A stretch of DNA of 64,000 nt, taken from NCBI RefSeq assembly GCF_045037415.1, contig NZ_CP173438.1. One strand, given 5' to 3'. This stretch comes from Escherichia coli. Its GTDB lineage: Bacteria; Pseudomonadota; Gammaproteobacteria; Enterobacterales; Enterobacteriaceae. The notes under the pieces were generated by a model, which saw only the letters and a program-made list of their open reading frames with translations, ran no database searches and was not told where the DNA came from. Of the stretch, positions 16,950 to 60,508 are shown one piece after another (positions within the stretch are counted from its first letter, which is position 1; each line of letters opens with the position of its first letter). The translations under genes were made by a program, and so were the position numbers.

Positions 16950-17846
16950 GTGAAACAGGATCTGGCACGCATCGAGCAGTTTCTTGATGCTCTGTGGCTG
17001 GAAAAAAATCTGGCTGAAAATACGTTGAACGCTTACCGTCGCGATCTGTCAATGATGGTGGAGTGGTTGCATCACCGCGGGTTGACGCTGGCGACGGCGC
17101 AAAGTGACGATTTGCAGGCATTACTGGCAGAACGGCTGGAGGGCGGGTATAAAGCCACCAGCTCAGCGCGTTTGCTGAGTGCAGTGCGCCGATTGTTCCA
17201 GTATCTTTATCGCGAAAAGTTTCGTGAAGATGATCCCAGTGCGCATCTCGCTTCACCGAAATTGCCCCAGCGTTTGCCAAAAGATTTAAGCGAAGCGCAG
17301 GTCGAACGTTTATTACAGGCACCATTAATTGATCAGCCACTGGAGCTACGCGATAAAGCCATGCTTGAAGTGTTGTATGCTACCGGACTGCGTGTCTCTG
17401 AACTGGTCGGGCTGACAATGAGTGATATCAGCCTGCGTCAGGGCGTGGTGCGGGTCATTGGTAAAGGCAACAAAGAGCGCCTGGTGCCGTTAGGTGAAGA
17501 GGCGGTTTACTGGCTGGAAACCTATCTGGAACATGGGCGTCCGTGGCTGTTGAATGGTGTGTCAATTGACGTGTTGTTTCCCAGCCAGCGTGCGCAGCAG
17601 ATGACGCGACAGACCTTCTGGCACCGCATTAAACATTATGCCGTGCTGGCGGGTATCGACAGCGAAAAGCTGTCACCGCATGTGTTGCGTCACGCTTTTG
17701 CCACTCACTTATTAAATCATGGTGCGGATTTACGCGTGGTGCAGATGCTACTGGGCCACAGCGATCTCTCCACCACGCAAATTTATACGCATGTCGCTAC
17801 CGAGCGTCTGCGACAACTTCATCAACAGCATCACCCGCGGGCGTGA
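16950..17846 (+). CDS. xerD: Site-specific tyrosine recombinase XerD
   Basis: 298 aa; catalytic C-terminal motifs LRHAFATHLLNHGADLRVVQMLLGHSDLSTTQIYTHV. Confidence 0.95.
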   Translation: MKQDLARIEQFLDALWLEKNLAENTLNAYRRDLSMMVEWLHHRGLTLATAQSDDLQALLAERLEGGYKATSSARLLSAVRRLFQYLYREKFREDDPSAHLASPKLPQRLPKDLSEAQVERLLQAPLIDQPLELRDKAMLEVLYATGLRVSELVGLTMSDISLRQGVVRVIGKGNKERLVPLGEEAVYWLETYLEHGRPWLLNGVSIDVLFPSQRAQQMTRQTFWHRIKHYAVLAGIDSEKLSPHVLRHAFATHLLNHGADLRVVQMLLGHSDLSTTQIYTHVATERLRQLHQQHHPRA

Positions 17847-18586: not shown

Positions 18587-20320
18587 GTGAAACAACAGAT
18601 ACAACTTCGTCGCCGTGAAGTCGATGAAACGGCCGACTTGCCCGCTGAATTGCCTCCCTTGCTGCGCCGTTTATATGCCAGCCGGGGTGTGCGTAGCGCG
18701 CAGGAACTGGAACGCAGTGTTAAAGGCATGCTGCCCTGGCAGCAACTGAGCGGCGTCGAAAAGGCCGTTGAGATCCTTTACAACGCTTTTCGCGAAGGAA
18801 CGCGGATTATTGTGGTCGGTGATTTCGACGCCGACGGTGCCACCAGCACGGCTCTAAGCGTGCTGGCGATGCGCTCGCTTGGTTGCAGCAATATCGACTA
18901 CCTGGTTCCAAACCGTTTCGAAGACGGTTACGGCTTAAGCCCGGAAGTAGTCGATCAGGCTCATGCCCGTGGCGCGCAGTTAATTGTCACGGTGGATAAC
19001 GGTATTTCCTCCCATGCGGGGGTTGAACACGCTCGTTCGTTGGGCATTCCGGTTATTGTTACCGATCACCATTTGCCAGGCGACACATTACCCGCAGCGG
19101 AAGCGATCATTAACCCTAACTTGCGCGACTGTAATTTCCCGTCGAAATCACTGGCGGGCGTTGGCGTGGCGTTTTATCTGATGCTGGCGCTGCGCACCTT
19201 TTTGCGCGATCAGGGCTGGTTTGATGAGCGCGGCATCGCAATTCCTAATCTGGCAGAACTGCTGGATCTGGTAGCGTTGGGGACAGTGGCGGACGTCGTG
19301 CCGCTGGACGCTAATAATCGCATTCTGACCTGGCAGGGGATGAGTCGCATCCGTGCCGGAAAGTGCCGTCCGGGGATTAAAGCGTTGCTGGAAGTGGCCA
19401 ATCGCGATCCACAAAAACTCGCCGCCAGCGATTTAGGTTTTGCGCTGGGGCCACGTCTCAATGCTGCCGGGCGACTGGACGATATGTCCGTTGGCGTGGC
19501 GCTGTTGCTGTGCGACAACATCGGCGAAGCGCGCGTGCTGGCAAATGAACTCGATGCGCTAAACCAGACGCGAAAAGAGATCGAACAGGGAATGCAAGTT
19601 GAAGCCCTGACCTTGTGCGAGAAACTGGAGCGCAGCCGCGACACGCTACCCGGCGGGCTGGCAATGTATCACCCCGAATGGCATCAGGGCGTTGTCGGTA
19701 TTCTGGCTTCGCGCATCAAAGAGCGTTTTCATCGTCCGGTTATCGCCTTTGCGCCAGCTGGTGATGGTACGCTGAAAGGTTCCGGTCGCTCCATTCAGGG
19801 GCTGCATATGCGTGATGCGCTGGAGCGGCTAGACACGCTTTACCCCGGCATGATGCTCAAGTTTGGCGGTCATGCGATGGCGGCGGGTTTGTCGCTGGAA
19901 GAGGAGAAATTCGAACTCTTTCAACAACGGTTTGGCGAACTGGTTACTGAGTGGCTGGACCCTTCGCTATTGCAAGGCGAAGTGGTGTCGGACGGTCCGT
20001 TAAGTCCGGCCGAAATGACCATGGAAGTGGCGCAGCTGTTGCGCGATGCTGGCCCGTGGGGGCAGATGTTCCCGGAGCCGCTGTTTGATGGTCATTTCCG
20101 TCTGCTGCAACAGCGGCTGGTGGGCGAACGTCATTTGAAAGTCATGGTCGAACCGGTCGGCGGCGGTCCACTGCTGGACGGGATTGCTTTTAATGTCGAT
20201 ACCGCCCTCTGGCCGGATAACGGCGTGCGCGAAGTGCAACTGGCTTACAAGCTCGATATCAACGAGTTTCGCGGCAACCGCAGCCTGCAAATTATCATCG
20301 ACAATATCTGGCCAATTTAG
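18587..20320 (+). CDS. recJ: Single-stranded-DNA-specific exonuclease RecJ
   Basis: 577 aa; DHH phosphoesterase motifs (VGDFDADGATS, DHHLPG). Confidence 0.95.
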   Translation: MKQQIQLRRREVDETADLPAELPPLLRRLYASRGVRSAQELERSVKGMLPWQQLSGVEKAVEILYNAFREGTRIIVVGDFDADGATSTALSVLAMRSLGCSNIDYLVPNRFEDGYGLSPEVVDQAHARGAQLIVTVDNGISSHAGVEHARSLGIPVIVTDHHLPGDTLPAAEAIINPNLRDCNFPSKSLAGVGVAFYLMLALRTFLRDQGWFDERGIAIPNLAELLDLVALGTVADVVPLDANNRILTWQGMSRIRAGKCRPGIKALLEVANRDPQKLAASDLGFALGPRLNAAGRLDDMSVGVALLLCDNIGEARVLANELDALNQTRKEIEQGMQVEALTLCEKLERSRDTLPGGLAMYHPEWHQGVVGILASRIKERFHRPVIAFAPAGDGTLKGSGRSIQGLHMRDALERLDTLYPGMMLKFGGHAMAAGLSLEEEKFELFQQRFGELVTEWLDPSLLQGEVVSDGPLSPAEMTMEVAQLLRDAGPWGQMFPEPLFDGHFRLLQQRLVGERHLKVMVEPVGGGPLLDGIAFNVDTALWPDNGVREVQLAYKLDINEFRGNRSLQIIIDNIWPI

Positions 20321-53907: not shown

Positions 53908-56166
53908 TCAAATCAATCCTGCCAGATGGAATTCTTCATATAATCGTTTTGGCGTTAGCGGCAGTGTATTGATTGCAACACCGGTAGCCATCTTCACCGC
54001 GTTACGAATAGCAGCGGCTACAGGAATTATGGGTGGCTCACCCAGTGACTTATGTCCGTATGCGGATTGCGGCTCATTGATTTCGACGAACGCGCTTTCC
54101 AGTTGTGGCAGATCCGGCATGGTCGGCATTTTGTAATCCAGCAGATTGGGGTTACGGACCACGCCGCTTTTCGCATCGATGATCATCTCTTCAAATAGCG
54201 CCCAGCCAATGCCCATCCCCATTCCGCCGTGTACCTGACCTTCTGCCAGCAGCGGATTAAGAATATGGCCCGAATCATGAACGTTGAGGATGCGGTTGAT
54301 GGTTACTTTACACAGTGCAATATCGACCGTCAGATCAACAAAGGTACAGCCAAACGCCGGTGGGTTAGTGGTGGTTTTGATGGAGCTTTCGGCAGAGAGC
54401 TGCCCGCCGCGTTCAGGGTGGTAGAAAGCGTCCATCGCCAAATCTTTTAACGACATTAACGGCTCTTCCGGTCGTTCAACCAGCACGATATGGCCTTTTA
54501 TCAGGGTCAGATTCATCGCTGACTGATGTAGCATGACTGCGGCGTGAGCGATGATTTTCTCTTTTAATAACAGTGCCGCACTGCGCAGCGCAGGCGCGGC
54601 AACATAGCTCTGACGTGAGGCAAATGCGCCGGGGTCGAATGGTGTAACGTCGGTGTCTTGTGTCGAAATTACGCGGACATCGCTGACCGGAACTCCCACG
54701 GTTTCTGCCACCATTTGCGAGAACACGGTGTCGGCACCCTGGCCGATTTCCGTCGCGCCGCTTTGCACGTTGATGGTTCCATCCTGATTCATCAACAGGC
54801 GCGCGCCTGCTATTTCTACGCCGACAGGCCAGGTGTTAGAGGTGTAGCTAAAACAGGCGACGCCAACGCCACGACGTAAATTGCCTTGCTGGTTCTGGCA
54901 CTCTGCACGGCGTTTTTCCCATTCAAAGATTTTCCGGCCTTTTTCAAGACACTCCGGCAACCCTGCGCTGTAAATACGTTTTCCCGTGAGCGGATTAGCA
55001 TCTCCTTCGCGGGCGGCGTTGCGTAAACGAATTTCAACAGGATCAATACCTAACGCTGTCGCGGCATCATCAAGCATAGACTCAACGGCAAATACGACTT
55101 GTGGCGCGCCATAACCACGCATCGCACCAGCCGAGGGGAGGTTGGTATAGCAGGTCTTTGAACTGTAAGCGTAGGCACAACGAGGATAAAGGTAAGCGAC
55201 TTTATTCCCCCCAGCAGAAGCAATGGAGTGCCCGTGAGATGCATAAGCGCCGGTGTTAGACAGAACATCCAGACTATAACCTTTCAATGTTCCGTCGCGG
55301 TTCACGCCCATTTGCCCGTCAATAGTAAAAGCGTGGCGGGTACGGGTTGCGAGGAAACACTCTTCACGGCTAAGAGAAACTTTCACCGGAATGCCGCCAA
55401 GTTTGCTTGTCAGGAATGCCGCCATTGGCTCTTCCAGTACATCCTGTTTATTACCAAAACCGCCACCGATAAACGGTTTGATGACTCGTACGCATGACCA
55501 GGGAATATCCAGCGCCTGACCAACCACGCGGCGAACAATGTGCGGGATCTGGGTGCTGGAAACGATGGTAATTCGCGAGTCATCCTCCATCCATGCCAGC
55601 GATGTCACGCTTTCCATATGACAATGTTGAATAACGGGCGTCTGATAGTGCCCCTGTACCTGGTAGTCGGCGGCATCGATTGTTTGTTGGACATTACCCG
55701 TCGACATCGTGCTTTGTTTCAGTAAATTGCCACCGTTATGGATTGGTGCAGCGTCTTCTGCCAGCGCCGCTTCTGACGAGGTGATAACGGGTAATTCTTG
55801 CCACTCAATGCTGACCAATTGCACCGCTTTTTCTGCCGTGAGTTCATCGCGGGCTACGACGATGGCAACGGCGTCACCATGATGACGAACATGACGCGTT
55901 AGCAGGGCACGATCGGCAGTATCGCGCTTGTTTTCGTCAAGTGTCCAGGCATGCCCTGCCGTGGCGAATGGGATTTCTGGCACATCTTCCCAGGTAAAAA
56001 TCGCCAGGACGCCCGGCAAACTCCTGGCTTGTTCATCATTAATACTTACGGCATAACCATGTGCGATAGGGCTACGTACATATTTCGCGTAACACATGCC
56101 CGCCATAACATAATCGTCAGTATATCGTGCCCGCCCGGTGACCTTAGCAATGGCATCGACGCGCAT
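53908..56166 (-). CDS. xdhA: Xanthine dehydrogenase molybdenum-binding subunit
   Basis: Track ORF 53908..56205; start MRVDAIAKVTGRARYTDDY gives 752 aa. Confidence 0.93.
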   Translation of the reverse strand: MRVDAIAKVTGRARYTDDYVMAGMCYAKYVRSPIAHGYAVSINDEQARSLPGVLAIFTWEDVPEIPFATAGHAWTLDENKRDTADRALLTRHVRHHGDAVAIVVARDELTAEKAVQLVSIEWQELPVITSSEAALAEDAAPIHNGGNLLKQSTMSTGNVQQTIDAADYQVQGHYQTPVIQHCHMESVTSLAWMEDDSRITIVSSTQIPHIVRRVVGQALDIPWSCVRVIKPFIGGGFGNKQDVLEEPMAAFLTSKLGGIPVKVSLSREECFLATRTRHAFTIDGQMGVNRDGTLKGYSLDVLSNTGAYASHGHSIASAGGNKVAYLYPRCAYAYSSKTCYTNLPSAGAMRGYGAPQVVFAVESMLDDAATALGIDPVEIRLRNAAREGDANPLTGKRIYSAGLPECLEKGRKIFEWEKRRAECQNQQGNLRRGVGVACFSYTSNTWPVGVEIAGARLLMNQDGTINVQSGATEIGQGADTVFSQMVAETVGVPVSDVRVISTQDTDVTPFDPGAFASRQSYVAAPALRSAALLLKEKIIAHAAVMLHQSAMNLTLIKGHIVLVERPEEPLMSLKDLAMDAFYHPERGGQLSAESSIKTTTNPPAFGCTFVDLTVDIALCKVTINRILNVHDSGHILNPLLAEGQVHGGMGMGIGWALFEEMIIDAKSGVVRNPNLLDYKMPTMPDLPQLESAFVEINEPQSAYGHKSLGEPPIIPVAAAIRNAVKMATGVAINTLPLTPKRLYEEFHLAGLI

Positions 56167-56618
56167 GCATGATTCACCCGTAGCGGTTGCTTCCCGCGCT
56201 TCCATAGAAATCCCCTCGGTTTGAACATTTGGTTCTTATGGCAAAGATTTAGTCTTAGCAGGCAAGAATTACGCCAGAAACGACTATATGCGTGAGGGGA
56301 GGAAGGAAGTGTGATGACGTTAAAAAAACACAGATATGATACGAAACAGGACTCTGAATAGGGACAGTGATACGTATCAATATGAGTGGCGATAAAATCA
56401 ATGTGATAAATTAGGATTATTACGCATCAAGGTGGGAAATAGGGTAAAAGTCAGGAAATTCGATACCACTACAGCAAATATTTTGCTGATGATACTTCCC
56501 TTTGCCAAATGAAATTAACCTCTTTCTCTATTACATCGTTTTTCCAGAAGCAAGAGATTGGGTATCAAGAGGCTGGCTGCTATGATATGGCGTCTTGTTT
56601 TTTAAGCGAGGAAAGATT

Positions 56619-57374
56619 TTGAGTGCGGGACGCCTGAATAAAAAATCTCTGGGTATCGTGATGTTGTTATCGGTTGGACTGCTTTTGGCGGGCTGTTCGG
56701 GTAGCAAATCATCCGATACAGGAACGTATTCCGGCTCCGTTTACACCGTGAAACGGGGGGATACGCTATATCGTATTTCGCGCACCACGGGAACCAGCGT
56801 AAAAGAACTGGCGCGACTGAACGGCATTTCCCCCCCTTACACCATTGAAGTAGGTCAGAAACTAAAACTGGGTGGGGCGAAAAGTAGCAGTAGTACACGT
56901 AAATCAACCGCCAAATCCACGACCAAAACCGCATCGGTTACACCGTCATCAGCGGTACCGAAATCTTCCTGGCCGCCAGTAGGGCAACGTTGTTGGTTAT
57001 GGCCAACGACAGGGAAAGTTATCATGCCGTATTCGACAGCAGATGGCGGCAATAAAGGGATTGATATCTCAGCTCCACGAGGTACACCTATTTACGCCGC
57101 GGGTGCAGGAAAGGTGGTGTATGTGGGCAACCAGCTGCGTGGCTACGGTAATCTCATCATGATTAAACACAGTGAAGATTACATTACGGCTTACGCTCAT
57201 AATGACACGATGCTGGTAAATAATGGGCAAAGCGTGAAGGCTGGGCAAAAAATCGCCACTATGGGGAGCACTGATGCGGCATCTGTTCGCCTGCATTTCC
57301 AGATTCGTTACCGTGCAACGGCAATTGATCCGCTACGTTACTTGCCGCCTCAGGGCAGCAAGCCAAAATGCTGA
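56619..57374 (+). CDS. ygeR: LysM / M23-peptidase-domain lipoprotein (septal murein hydrolase activator)
   Basis: Track ORF 56595..57374; likely TTG start (RBS gaggaaag) giving 251 aa; lipobox LLAGCSG; C-terminal M23 (LytM) domain. Confidence 0.88.
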   Translation: MSAGRLNKKSLGIVMLLSVGLLLAGCSGSKSSDTGTYSGSVYTVKRGDTLYRISRTTGTSVKELARLNGISPPYTIEVGQKLKLGGAKSSSSTRKSTAKSTTKTASVTPSSAVPKSSWPPVGQRCWLWPTTGKVIMPYSTADGGNKGIDISAPRGTPIYAAGAGKVVYVGNQLRGYGNLIMIKHSEDYITAYAHNDTMLVNNGQSVKAGQKIATMGSTDAASVRLHFQIRYRATAIDPLRYLPPQGSKPKC

Positions 57375-57452
57375 TGGCGAATTAATCAGCAGTCAGCAGC
57401 GTGGTACTTGCTAAGGAGAGCGTAAGGTTTATAATGCCTTACGCATCTCGAA

Positions 57453-57526
57453 GCGGGCGTAGTTCAATGGTAGAACGAGAGCTTCCCAAGCTCTATACGA
57501 GGGTTCGATTCCCTTCGCCCGCTCCA
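57453..57526 (+). tRNA. glyU: tRNA-Gly (anticodon CCC)
   Basis: 74-nt sequence gcgggcgtagttcaatggtagaacgagagcttcccaagctctatacgagggttcgattcccttcgcccgctcca; cloverleaf with CCC anticodon in the cttCCCaag loop; 3' CCA encoded. Confidence 0.95.
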
Positions 57527-57842
57527 ATTTATCTTCACATCATCTACCTGCCATTTTTGTTGTATCTGATTTTCTATATTATCTTAATTCAAGCGCTTCA
57601 GACTTTTCGCAATCGCCGTAATACTTCCCCATTTTTTTGTAAATAAAAAGCGTTTACGCAATGCAATCGTCATGTATCTTAAATAGTCTTATTTAAGATG
57701 TTCAGAACTCTTTGTGTGTTTAACTGGCTGATAATTATATAATATTACGAGAGAAGTGATAGAGCGGAATAATAACAAATGAACATTATGAAAACTGGGA
57801 TGGTTCAAAATTGAAGCAATTTTGAACCATCCACAACGGATA

Positions 57843-59072
57843 TTAGCTAAAGAACATTACCGATACGCACAGGATACCCACGATCAGGGTAATCAGATTT
57901 CCGATGGAACGCCAGGGTTTAAGCGCCGGGATGAGATACGTTGACAGCGTAGGCATGATGAAAAGTATCATGGCAATGAGCGGGCCGCTGATCGCGTAAA
58001 TCATCGAAATCGCGTTCGGGTTAATGCAACAAACAATGAAGGTAATCAGCGATACCAACATAATTGATAGTGCGCGGTTAAATGCACGACTTTTCTTTAC
58101 ACCAACCTGCTGTAATGTTGTTTTGACGACCTCTGTGGCACCTTCAATAACGCCAAAGTACGTACCCAGGAATGATTTCGACATCGCAACTACTGCGACA
58201 ATAATCCCGGAAATTGACAACCATGCTGGGGCGTTCGGCAGCATAGAAAGCGCCGATAAAATGGTAACCCCTTCTTCTTTAGCCGCTTCAATATACGAAG
58301 GTGGAATAGAAAGCAGGCAGCTAAAGACAAAGAACAATACACTTATGCAGATGATGAGATAAGCGACTTTCATAATTTTTTTGCATTTATCCATAGCATG
58401 TTCGCCATATTTTTCACGTCTGTCTATGGCAAACGTAGAAATAATGGGCGTATGGCTAAAAGCGAAAACCATCACGGGAATCGATATCCATATCTGGTGA
58501 AGGGTATTCTGATTGAACTCTACCTGGGTTGTTAATAGATCAGGTTGCCAACTACCGACCAGGTAAATAGAAAGAAATAAGAAATAGGCAATCAATGGGA
58601 ATACCAAAAATCCCATTACCCGAATAGTGGCATGGCGTCCCATCAGAAAAATGAGATTCAGGATTAATACAACCCCCAGACTCACTAGCATACGGATGCG
58701 AAGATCAATAACCATATGCTTTGCCAGCTGTTCCGTAAGTGAGTTGGTAATTGCCACTGCATATATCAACACGACGACAAAAAAGGCGATGAAGTACAGC
58801 GTGGTAATCAGATTACCAATCTTCTTGCCATAGTAGTGTGTTACCGCGCCCGTTATCCCTTCACCTGCTGATGTTTTCGATGAGAGGATGAACTGGCATA
58901 AGGCTTTATGTGGCCAATATGTTAAAGGCCAGGCGACCAGAGCAGTAATAAACAGGACCACAGCCCCCGCCGAACCTAACTGAATAGGAAGGAAGAGCGT
59001 GCCTGCACCAACGGCTGTGCCGTAGAGTGCGAAACTCCACAGAGTTTCTTCTTTTGACCAAATATTAGACAT
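57843..59072 (-). CDS. yqeG: Amino-acid (Ser/Thr-type, HAAAP family) transporter YqeG
   Basis: 409-aa polytopic membrane ORF MSNIWSKEETLWSFALYGTAVGAGTLFLPIQLGSAG... Confidence 0.9.
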   Translation of the reverse strand: MSNIWSKEETLWSFALYGTAVGAGTLFLPIQLGSAGAVVLFITALVAWPLTYWPHKALCQFILSSKTSAGEGITGAVTHYYGKKIGNLITTLYFIAFFVVVLIYAVAITNSLTEQLAKHMVIDLRIRMLVSLGVVLILNLIFLMGRHATIRVMGFLVFPLIAYFLFLSIYLVGSWQPDLLTTQVEFNQNTLHQIWISIPVMVFAFSHTPIISTFAIDRREKYGEHAMDKCKKIMKVAYLIICISVLFFVFSCLLSIPPSYIEAAKEEGVTILSALSMLPNAPAWLSISGIIVAVVAMSKSFLGTYFGVIEGATEVVKTTLQQVGVKKSRAFNRALSIMLVSLITFIVCCINPNAISMIYAISGPLIAMILFIMPTLSTYLIPALKPWRSIGNLITLIVGILCVSVMFFS

Positions 59073-59326
59073 TATCTGAACGTATCATCTACAAATTAAA
59101 CAAAATGGAGGGCAATTTACCATAAACCAGGTTAAGTATGGGAGATTAACGCCTTATCTACCTCTCTATTGGTGGGTTAGTGGTTGCAAACCTTACGTGC
59201 CAGTTATGTCTCTGACTACTACTCAGGCGTATTTCCTTTGTGATAATGGTCACTTTTTTTAAACAATTAAGATAACTGTAATTAACAATCATTTACTATT
59301 GCACTGTTAATTGGTGCGAGGTTGTG

Positions 59327-60508
59327 ATGAAAGACGTTGTGATTGTCGGGGCGTTACGGACACCTATCGGCTGCTTTCGTGGTGCGTTAGCGGGTCATTC
59401 CGCCGTGGAACTTGGCAGCCTGGTCGTCAAAGCGTTAATAGAACGTACCGGCGTTCCTGCATATGCGGTGGATGAAGTGATTCTTGGTCAGGTGTTGACT
59501 GCAGGGGCAGGGCAGAATCCGGCAAGACAATCGGCTATTAAAGGTGGTCTTCCTAATAGCGTTTCTGCAATCACTATTAATGACGTTTGTGGTTCCGGGC
59601 TTAAAGCACTGCATCTGGCTACTCAGGCGATACAGTGTGGCGAGGCTGATATTGTCATCGCCGGTGGCCAGGAAAACATGAGCCGCGCACCACATGTTCT
59701 GACTGATAGCCGCACCGGCGCACAGCTTGGCAATAGCCAGTTGGTTGATAGTCTTGTGCATGATGGGTTGTGGGATGCCTTCAATGATTATCATATTGGT
59801 GTCACCGCCGAAAATCTGGCTCGCGAATATGGCATCAGCCGTCAGTTGCAGGATGCTTACGCACTTAGCTCGCAACAAAAAGCGCGAGCGGCGATTGACG
59901 CCGGACGATTTAAAGATGAGATCGTCCCGGTAATAACCCAAAGTAACGGTCAGACGTTGGTTGTTGATACCGATGAACAGCCACGCACTGACACCAGCGC
60001 AGAAGGCTTAGCCCGTTTAAATCCTTCATTTGATAGTCTCGGTTCTGTGACAGCGGGTAATGCATCATCCATAAACGATGGGGCAGCTGCAGTAATGATG
60101 ATGAGCGAAGCCAAAGCACGAGCGTTGAATTTACCCGTGCTGGCCCGCATCCGCGCATTTGCCAGCGTTGGTGTGGATCCGGCATTGATGGGAATTGCGC
60201 CGGTGTATGCGACCCGCCGTTGCCTGGAGCGTGTTGGCTGGCAGTTGGCTGATGTCGATCTTATCGAGGCTAATGAAGCGTTTGCTGCACAGGCGCTTTC
60301 GGTTGGCAAGATGCTTGAATGGGATGAGCGTCGGGTCAATGTTAATGGTGGTGCGATCGCACTCGGTCACCCGATAGGCGCTTCCGGTTGCCGAATCCTG
60401 GTTTCTCTTGTTCATGAAATGGTGAAACGTAATGCCCGCAAAGGACTGGCAACGCTTTGTATCGGCGGAGGCCAGGGTGTGGCATTGACCATTGAACGTG
60501 ACGAGTAG
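59327..60508 (+). CDS. yqeF: Acetyl-CoA acetyltransferase (thiolase II family)
   Basis: Track ORF 59324..60508; start MKDVVIVGALRTPIG gives 393 aa; thiolase active-site region (NDVCGSGL, C-terminal GGGQGVA). Confidence 0.92.
   Translation: MKDVVIVGALRTPIGCFRGALAGHSAVELGSLVVKALIERTGVPAYAVDEVILGQVLTAGAGQNPARQSAIKGGLPNSVSAITINDVCGSGLKALHLATQAIQCGEADIVIAGGQENMSRAPHVLTDSRTGAQLGNSQLVDSLVHDGLWDAFNDYHIGVTAENLAREYGISRQLQDAYALSSQQKARAAIDAGRFKDEIVPVITQSNGQTLVVDTDEQPRTDTSAEGLARLNPSFDSLGSVTAGNASSINDGAAAVMMMSEAKARALNLPVLARIRAFASVGVDPALMGIAPVYATRRCLERVGWQLADVDLIEANEAFAAQALSVGKMLEWDERRVNVNGGAIALGHPIGASGCRILVSLVHEMVKRNARKGLATLCIGGGQGVALTIERDE

Follow-up and report, generated by a model that had tools for sequence, protein, structure and literature searches.

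Absence of the ETT2 island between glyU and yqeG in a B2-type Escherichia coli: a probable secondary loss at a known polymorphic locus

E. coli K-12, like most other E. coli, carries ETT2, the second type III secretion island, between yqeG and the tRNA gene glyU; in K-12 it is a degenerate remnant running from yqeH to ygeQ. This remnant is missing from the 64-kb stretch of E. coli DNA analyzed here (the window), and the original prediction accordingly described the locus as an unoccupied glyU site in a strain that is not of the K-12 type. The locus thus raises the question of whether ETT2 never entered this site or was removed from it. We have addressed this by defining the junction that replaces the island, by counting it among complete E. 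coli genomes, and by comparing it with the corresponding region of other Escherichia lineages.

Anatomy of the locus and position of ETT2

The genes actS, glyU, yqeG and yqeF are contiguous in the window with no ETT2 gene between or near them (Table 1). glyU is the only tRNA gene in the 64 kb, and its sequence is identical in the window, K-12 and O157. The actS gene is 99.1% identical to that of K-12, its product is 99.6% identical over 251 amino acids to ActS of strain EC332 (tblastn), and the annotation of matching genomes also names it actS. A mechanical ORF starting from a TTG at 56595 has 259 codons; the reference annotation has 251, with the start used in Table 1. As read from the sequence, glyU and yqeG retain signals of their own, namely a predicted promoter-like site and a terminator hairpin, respectively. 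The hairpin is kept in the alignment of K-12, O157 and the outgroups. The number of sigma-70-like sites is not above that expected from shuffling, making the match upstream of glyU weak evidence for a promoter.

Table 1. Features of the actS-yqeF region of the window
Feature	Position	Strand	Remarks
actS (ygeR), amidase activator, LysM/M23 domains	56619..57374	+	Left neighbor of glyU, conserved
Sigma-70-like promoter match (prediction only)	57408..57435	+	TTGCTA-16-TATAAT, 10/12 matches, upstream of glyU
glyU, tRNA-Gly(CCC)	57453-57526	+	ARAGORN; Rfam RF00005, 71.6 bits
Flank A, glyU side, 142 bp, G+C 0.33	57527..57668	+	92% identical to O157 (L002 10670-10811) and EC332
78-bp part of flank A	57537..57614	+	Missing in K-12; present in O157, EC332 and B2 strains
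Junction	57668..57669		...GCAATGCAATC / GTCATGTATC...; blastn and mafft against K-12, O157 and EC332
Flank C, yqeG 3' flank, 174 bp, G+C 0.31	57669..57842	-	Common to all Escherichia examined
Perfect 10-4-10 palindrome, ATCTTAAATA-GTCT-TATTTAAGAT	57676..57699		Repeat search; in flank C
yqeG intrinsic-terminator-like hairpin	57798..57832	-	16-bp stem, 3-nt loop, T-rich tail
yqeG, amino acid permease, 409 aa	57843..59072	-	ORF; 98.5% DNA identity to K-12 yqeG
yqeF, acetyl-CoA C-acetyltransferase	59324..60508	+	Right neighbor, conserved

The spacer between glyU and the yqeG stop codon at 57843 (57527-57842) is exactly 316 bp long with a G+C content of 0.32, as against 0.51 for the whole window, in agreement with the AT-rich spacer of about 316 bp first described. 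It holds no credible gene, the ORFs of at least 40 amino acids being of the kind expected by chance only (for example 57401-57646, which overlaps the tRNA), and no integrase fragment. An Rfam E-value scan of positions 56000-60000 returned nothing besides the tRNA and detected no hidden RNA genes. The short direct repeats of the spacer, each in two copies, match weakly and resemble chance. No second copy of the glyU 3' end occurs in the 64-kb window when 3 mismatches are allowed, so that the partial attachment-site repeats suggested as a possible trace of the island are not there. When 32 ETT2-region proteins from a nearly intact island were searched against the window by tblastn, only yqeG, actS and xdhA gave matches, and no ETT2 protein did. 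The ORF, tblastn, Rfam and repeat searches therefore uphold the original reading of the spacer as lacking an ORF, an integrase fragment and a tRNA 3'-end repeat, and ETT2 is wholly absent from the window, as that reading held.

Alignment with blastn and mafft resolved the spacer into two flanks that are joined bluntly at 57668/57669, a clean junction of the kind that the original prediction proposed to look for. No microhomology, IS, gene fragment or other scar is present at the join. In island-bearing E. coli, flank A sits between glyU and the GH15/ygeQ end of ETT2. Flank C is 90-92.5% identical to the corresponding sequence of K-12, O157 and EC332, 85.5% identical to that of MOD1-EC7003 (locus L004), and about 72% identical to that of Escherichia sp. 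E1V33 (L005) and of locus L006. The gap of 78 bp in flank A of K-12 MG1655 lies just downstream of glyU, near position 16974 of its locus (L001), and shows a 2-bp (TC) microhomology. Judging from the alignment, this gap is a separate small deletion of the K-12 lineage, unrelated to the attrition of ETT2. By eye, the two halves of flank A bear a loose resemblance to each other, and a duplicated att core was considered; it was dropped because the repeat search reported none and because the K-12 gap has only the 2-bp microhomology.

At the position of the junction K-12 MG1655 has an 11,669-bp ETT2 remnant (L001 5252-16920), comprising yqeH to ygeQ with an IS2. The RefSeq gene order is kduI, yqeF, yqeG, yqeH, yqeI, yqeJ, yqeK, ygeF, ygeG, ygeH, ygeI, pbl, ygeK-ygeO, IS2, ygeP, ygeQ, glyU, actS, xdhA. 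The premise of the original prediction, that in K-12 the remnant separates yqeG from glyU, is thereby confirmed. O157 AR-0429 has about 27.5 kb at the same point (L002 10812-38330), and overall 27.5-29 kb of ETT2 is found in this place between the flanks in O157 and the 042-like strain EC332. These islands encode sctC, sctV, sctN, sctR-U, eprH and other T3SS genes together with regulators. When a 25-kb query was used, the matches of Sakai, EDL933 and other island-bearing genomes all ended at query position 18668, which is window position 57668.

Where the site is occupied, as in O157 and EC332, 142 bp separate glyU from the start of the island. Occupied strains show no tRNA-end repeats at the limits of the island, and in the annotation of O157 and EC332 the genes nearest to glyU are those for GH15, a GhoT-like toxin and eivF, with no integrase among them. 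By this sequence evidence the ETT2 site adjoins glyU without lying in it, and the wording of an empty attB fits it poorly because the island lies 142 bp off the tRNA and has neither tRNA-end repeats nor an integrase.

Frequency of the junction and relation to phylogroup B2

A junction-spanning query (57593-57745) matched over its full length in 1217 of the 5426 complete E. coli genomes and was split in two in the rest. The larger 1.8-kb region 57300-59100 is contiguous in 1262 complete E. coli genomes, and the excess over 1217 includes genomes with an IS1 in yqeG and independent deletions such as that of strain E1739 (discussed below). Over 25 kb, several complete clinical genomes show 100% identity to the window, and K-12 shows about 97.3%. 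In the flanking genes the identity is 97-99% to K-12 and at least 99% to ATCC 25922. The source is thus not a K-12-type strain, which bears out the original prediction.

On the basis of these matches, the locus is the ETT2-null allele typical of phylogroup B2, including ST131-like clinical strains. Membership of the host in B2 is consistent with the 25-kb identity and with the likeness to ATCC 25922, as read from a 64-kb window rather than from typing. It has been reported that no ST131 (phylogroup B2) isolate contains any ETT2 element (PMC7058095), and that B2 is the exception to an otherwise ubiquitous presence of ETT2 in E. coli (PMC9241512, with reference to Ren et al. 2004). Because the absence of ETT2 is published for B2 and ST131, its absence here is a known and ordinary lineage marker. 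It marks the source of the window as a B2-type (ExPEC-like) rather than a K-12-like E. coli and bears out a textbook presence/absence polymorphism. At this locus the strain has neither structural nor regulatory genes of ETT2. The added value of the present analysis is small and lies in an outgroup comparison that favors secondary loss over the view that B2 never had ETT2.

Strain 2020N21-246 (L086), which is 97.6% identical to the window over 25 kb, was considered as a non-B2 lineage with the same junction. Compared with window positions 39001-64000, it is at least 99% identical at 39-41, 56.5-59 and 61-64 kb and only 93-97% identical across 45-56 kb (the ygeW-xdhA region). These identity blocks point to recombination in the selenium/purine catabolism cluster beside the locus. 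The strain is a recombinant mosaic, and because its junction region is B2-like at 99% or more it is silent on an independent origin of the junction.

Secondary loss and alternative origins of the junction

Species-representative genomes were scanned with a YqeG query, and glyU, actS and ETT2 proteins were then located in the returned loci. The scan returned mostly other genera and four non-coli Escherichia lineages; E. fergusonii, E. marmotae and E. ruysiae were not among them. Synteny of yqeG, glyU and actS extends beyond Escherichia to Huaxiibacter, Lelliottia, Leclercia, Silvania, Enterobacter soli and Pseudenterobacter, with yqeG-glyU gaps of 0.9-9 kb, showing that this interval is generally variable. 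Within Escherichia, strain E1V33, whose flanking genes share 85-88% identity with the window, carries diverged copies of yqeH, yqeI, yqeJ and ygeH between yqeG and glyU (L005 11631-15947), with amino acid identities of 95%, 71%, 70% and, for the HilA-like ygeH product, 62%. The interval contains regulator-type genes only, with no secretion-apparatus genes. This block could represent a very old ETT2 in reduced form, or else suggest that yqeH-yqeJ predates the T3SS genes here. In SCPM-O-B-8794 yqeH adjoins yqeG. A scar of 1.3 kb in the E. albertii type strain preserves both ETT2 ends, as the start of the GH15 gene and the yqeH-side intergenic region. MOD1-EC7003, with flanks about 96% identical to those of the window, has an empty site of 286 bp (L004 11231-11516).

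Alignment of the yqeG 3' region shows that flank C, after ...TTAAGATGCATAAC, runs unbroken into a further segment (TTAGATTCGCAAGATATCTTCTGGTCATTC... / TTAGATTCGCAAGATATCTTCTGGTCATTCAAAAACAATTTGCGATATAG...), which we call segment B. It is present in K-12, O157, EC332, E1V33, SCPM-O-B-8794 and E. albertii, and its first 41-46 bp are kept in MOD1-EC7003. The window departs from the alignment exactly at the boundary between flank C and segment B, and segment B is missing. An empty site in the sense of ancestral sequence with nothing missing is therefore not what the window contains. Of the original description as an unoccupied glyU site, the absence of ETT2 stands; the glyU site itself does not, the island not being at the tRNA end, and neither does the implied intactness, sequence conserved in the outgroups having gone.

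The flanking genes of the outgroups are 85-97% identical to those of the window as compared with 97-99% for K-12, and B2 is consequently nested within lineages that carry segment B. Because the B2 flanks are closer to K-12 than the outgroups are, the simplest reading is that segment B and yqeH are ancestral in the genus and were deleted in B2. On the glyU side, global alignment of the glyU-to-GH15 interval of O157 with those of E. albertii and E1V33 gave no convincing homology until about 17 bp into the island, and flank A could not be traced. Since flank A is unrecognizable in the distant outgroups, only one side of the argument is polarized.

From these comparisons we consider it probable that the B2 arrangement is an old, clean secondary deletion and not a never-occupied site. 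A single old deletion in the B2 ancestor would have taken everything from the GH15/ygeQ end through yqeH together with the distal part of the yqeG-yqeH intergenic region, after which the deletion allele would have been passed on vertically and moved here and there by homologous recombination. We infer both that there was one ancient event and how much of ETT2 existed at that time; the scarless join by itself does not prove deletion. Secondary loss agrees with the acquisition of ETT2 before the split of E. albertii and E. coli (Ooka et al., PMC4700944). It disagrees with the view of Ren et al. 2004, as summarized in PMC7058095, in which the same absence is read as B2 never having acquired the island.

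Complete loss of ETT2 has occurred several times with different end points, and the B2 event is probably one of these, old and fixed. E1739, a K-12-like E. coli from Bangladesh, has lost the whole remnant via an IS1B (L084 1728-2980) that is flanked by the region upstream of ygeQ and by the yqeG-yqeH intergenic sequence. In addition to the IS1, about 65 bp of the GH15/ygeQ end remain toward glyU and, toward yqeG, about 165 bp from the distal part of the yqeG-yqeH intergenic region. E1739 is thus an example of recent IS-mediated complete loss. In MOD1-EC7003 the proximal half of flank A is joined to the 41-46 bp of segment B at a 5-bp ATCGC microhomology; a junction of this type was found in none of the 5426 complete E. 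coli genomes.

The main alternative, which corresponds to the unoccupied site of the original prediction, is that B2 keeps the ancestral glyU-yqeG arrangement, and that ETT2, with the distal yqeG-yqeH intergenic sequence as its terminal part, entered E. coli only after B2 had branched. A junction free of IS, microhomology and gene fragments is what such a pristine site would look like, the summary of Ren et al. 2004 in PMC7058095 takes this side, and yqeG-glyU-actS spacers are also short, at about 0.9 kb, in other genera such as Huaxiibacter and Lelliottia. Nevertheless, the presence of one and the same sequence directly beside flank C in non-B2 E. coli as well as in E. albertii, E1V33, SCPM-O-B-8794 and MOD1-EC7003 would then demand that it was inserted independently at the same nucleotide, with no integrase or att repeats to explain repeated site-specific insertion. 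The only other way to accommodate it is for B2 to be basal to the genus, which is contradicted by the flank identities given above. We therefore regard a never-occupied B2 site as unlikely.

The empty allele might instead have been imported, an ETT2-bearing B2 ancestor having exchanged the locus by homologous recombination with an unsampled lineage. That recombination acts on this region is shown by 2020N21-246, in which the B2-type junction lies in a mosaic of blocks with 99% and 93-97% identity. However, no donor with this junction was found outside B2-like genomes, and the sole other empty Escherichia site, that of MOD1-EC7003, has a different junction that the complete E. coli genomes lack. 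Flanks A and C are moreover E. coli-like, at 92% identity to O157. Import is accordingly an unlikely explanation, to be placed slightly below a pristine site. A collapsed or mis-joined contig, finally, is refuted by the identical 25 kb in independent complete genomes and by the occurrence of the junction in 1217 of them.

The deletion favored here has an end point close to a conserved element. The palindrome in flank C begins 7 bp (57669-57675) past the junction and is unique in the window. In the general form ATCTTAAATA-N4-TATTTAAGAT it occurs once in every Escherichia locus fetched (L001 5221-5244, L002 38338-38361, L004 11374-11397, L005 11375-11398, L006 11374-11397 and L083 1089-1112), including that of E. 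albertii, where its surroundings are poorly conserved. It is absent from 76 other fetched loci, mostly of other genera. The palindrome could be a protein-binding site. A more specific proposal, that there was one precise ancient deletion with an end point fixed by a functional palindrome acting as a protein-binding or recombination-prone site, is speculative and we give it little credence. If true, it would settle the question of whether B2 lost or never acquired ETT2 in favor of loss.

Two further observations concern the genes bordering the interval. In the Citrobacter sedlakii / C. amalonaticus group (L007, L009, L010 and L013) a yqeH homologue with 78-79% amino acid identity lies about 2 kb downstream of yqeG, and in C. 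sedlakii yqeI/yqeJ-like genes are also near yqeG. Neither glyU nor actS is found within 10 kb in these four loci, and a fimbrial-type operon comes next. The linkage of yqeG and yqeH may thus be old and independent of the T3SS genes. In E. albertii NBRC 107761 the tRNA-Gly(CCC) gene beside actS (L083 2297-2370) is clearly distinct in sequence from E. coli glyU, its acceptor and anticodon stems carrying many substitutions, and is followed by an unrelated downstream flank. One of the lineages may have had its tRNA gene replaced at this locus.

Comparison with related loci

The locus resembles the empty attB of an integrase-borne tRNA island in that a tRNA gene adjoins it and in that the missing DNA is AT-rich and foreign-looking. 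It differs in having no duplication of the tRNA 3' end, in the lack of an integrase from the full-length islands, and in the position of the island boundary, 142 bp beyond the tRNA.

The full-length ETT2 islands of O157:H7 and EC332 have boundaries that are identical relative to flanks A and C of the window. The K-12 MG1655 remnant (yqeH-ygeQ, b2846-b2863) likewise has the same flanking genes and flank sequences. K-12 differs from the window in having a degenerate island with an IS2 at the junction and in being without 78 bp of flank A.

The nearest counterparts among independent losses are E1739, MOD1-EC7003 and the E. albertii type strain, in which, as in the window, glyU and yqeG are within 0.3-1.3 kb of one another. 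These three nevertheless have other end points and visible scars (IS1, the ATCGC join and the GH15 start, respectively), whereas the window has none. The closest match is to the ETT2-negative glyU-yqeG locus of B2, for which ATCC 25922 was examined. The junction is identical there to the nucleotide, and the 316-bp spacer contains one substitution, away from the join. Gene order, spacer length and junction are the same in the two, and nothing of substance differs between them.
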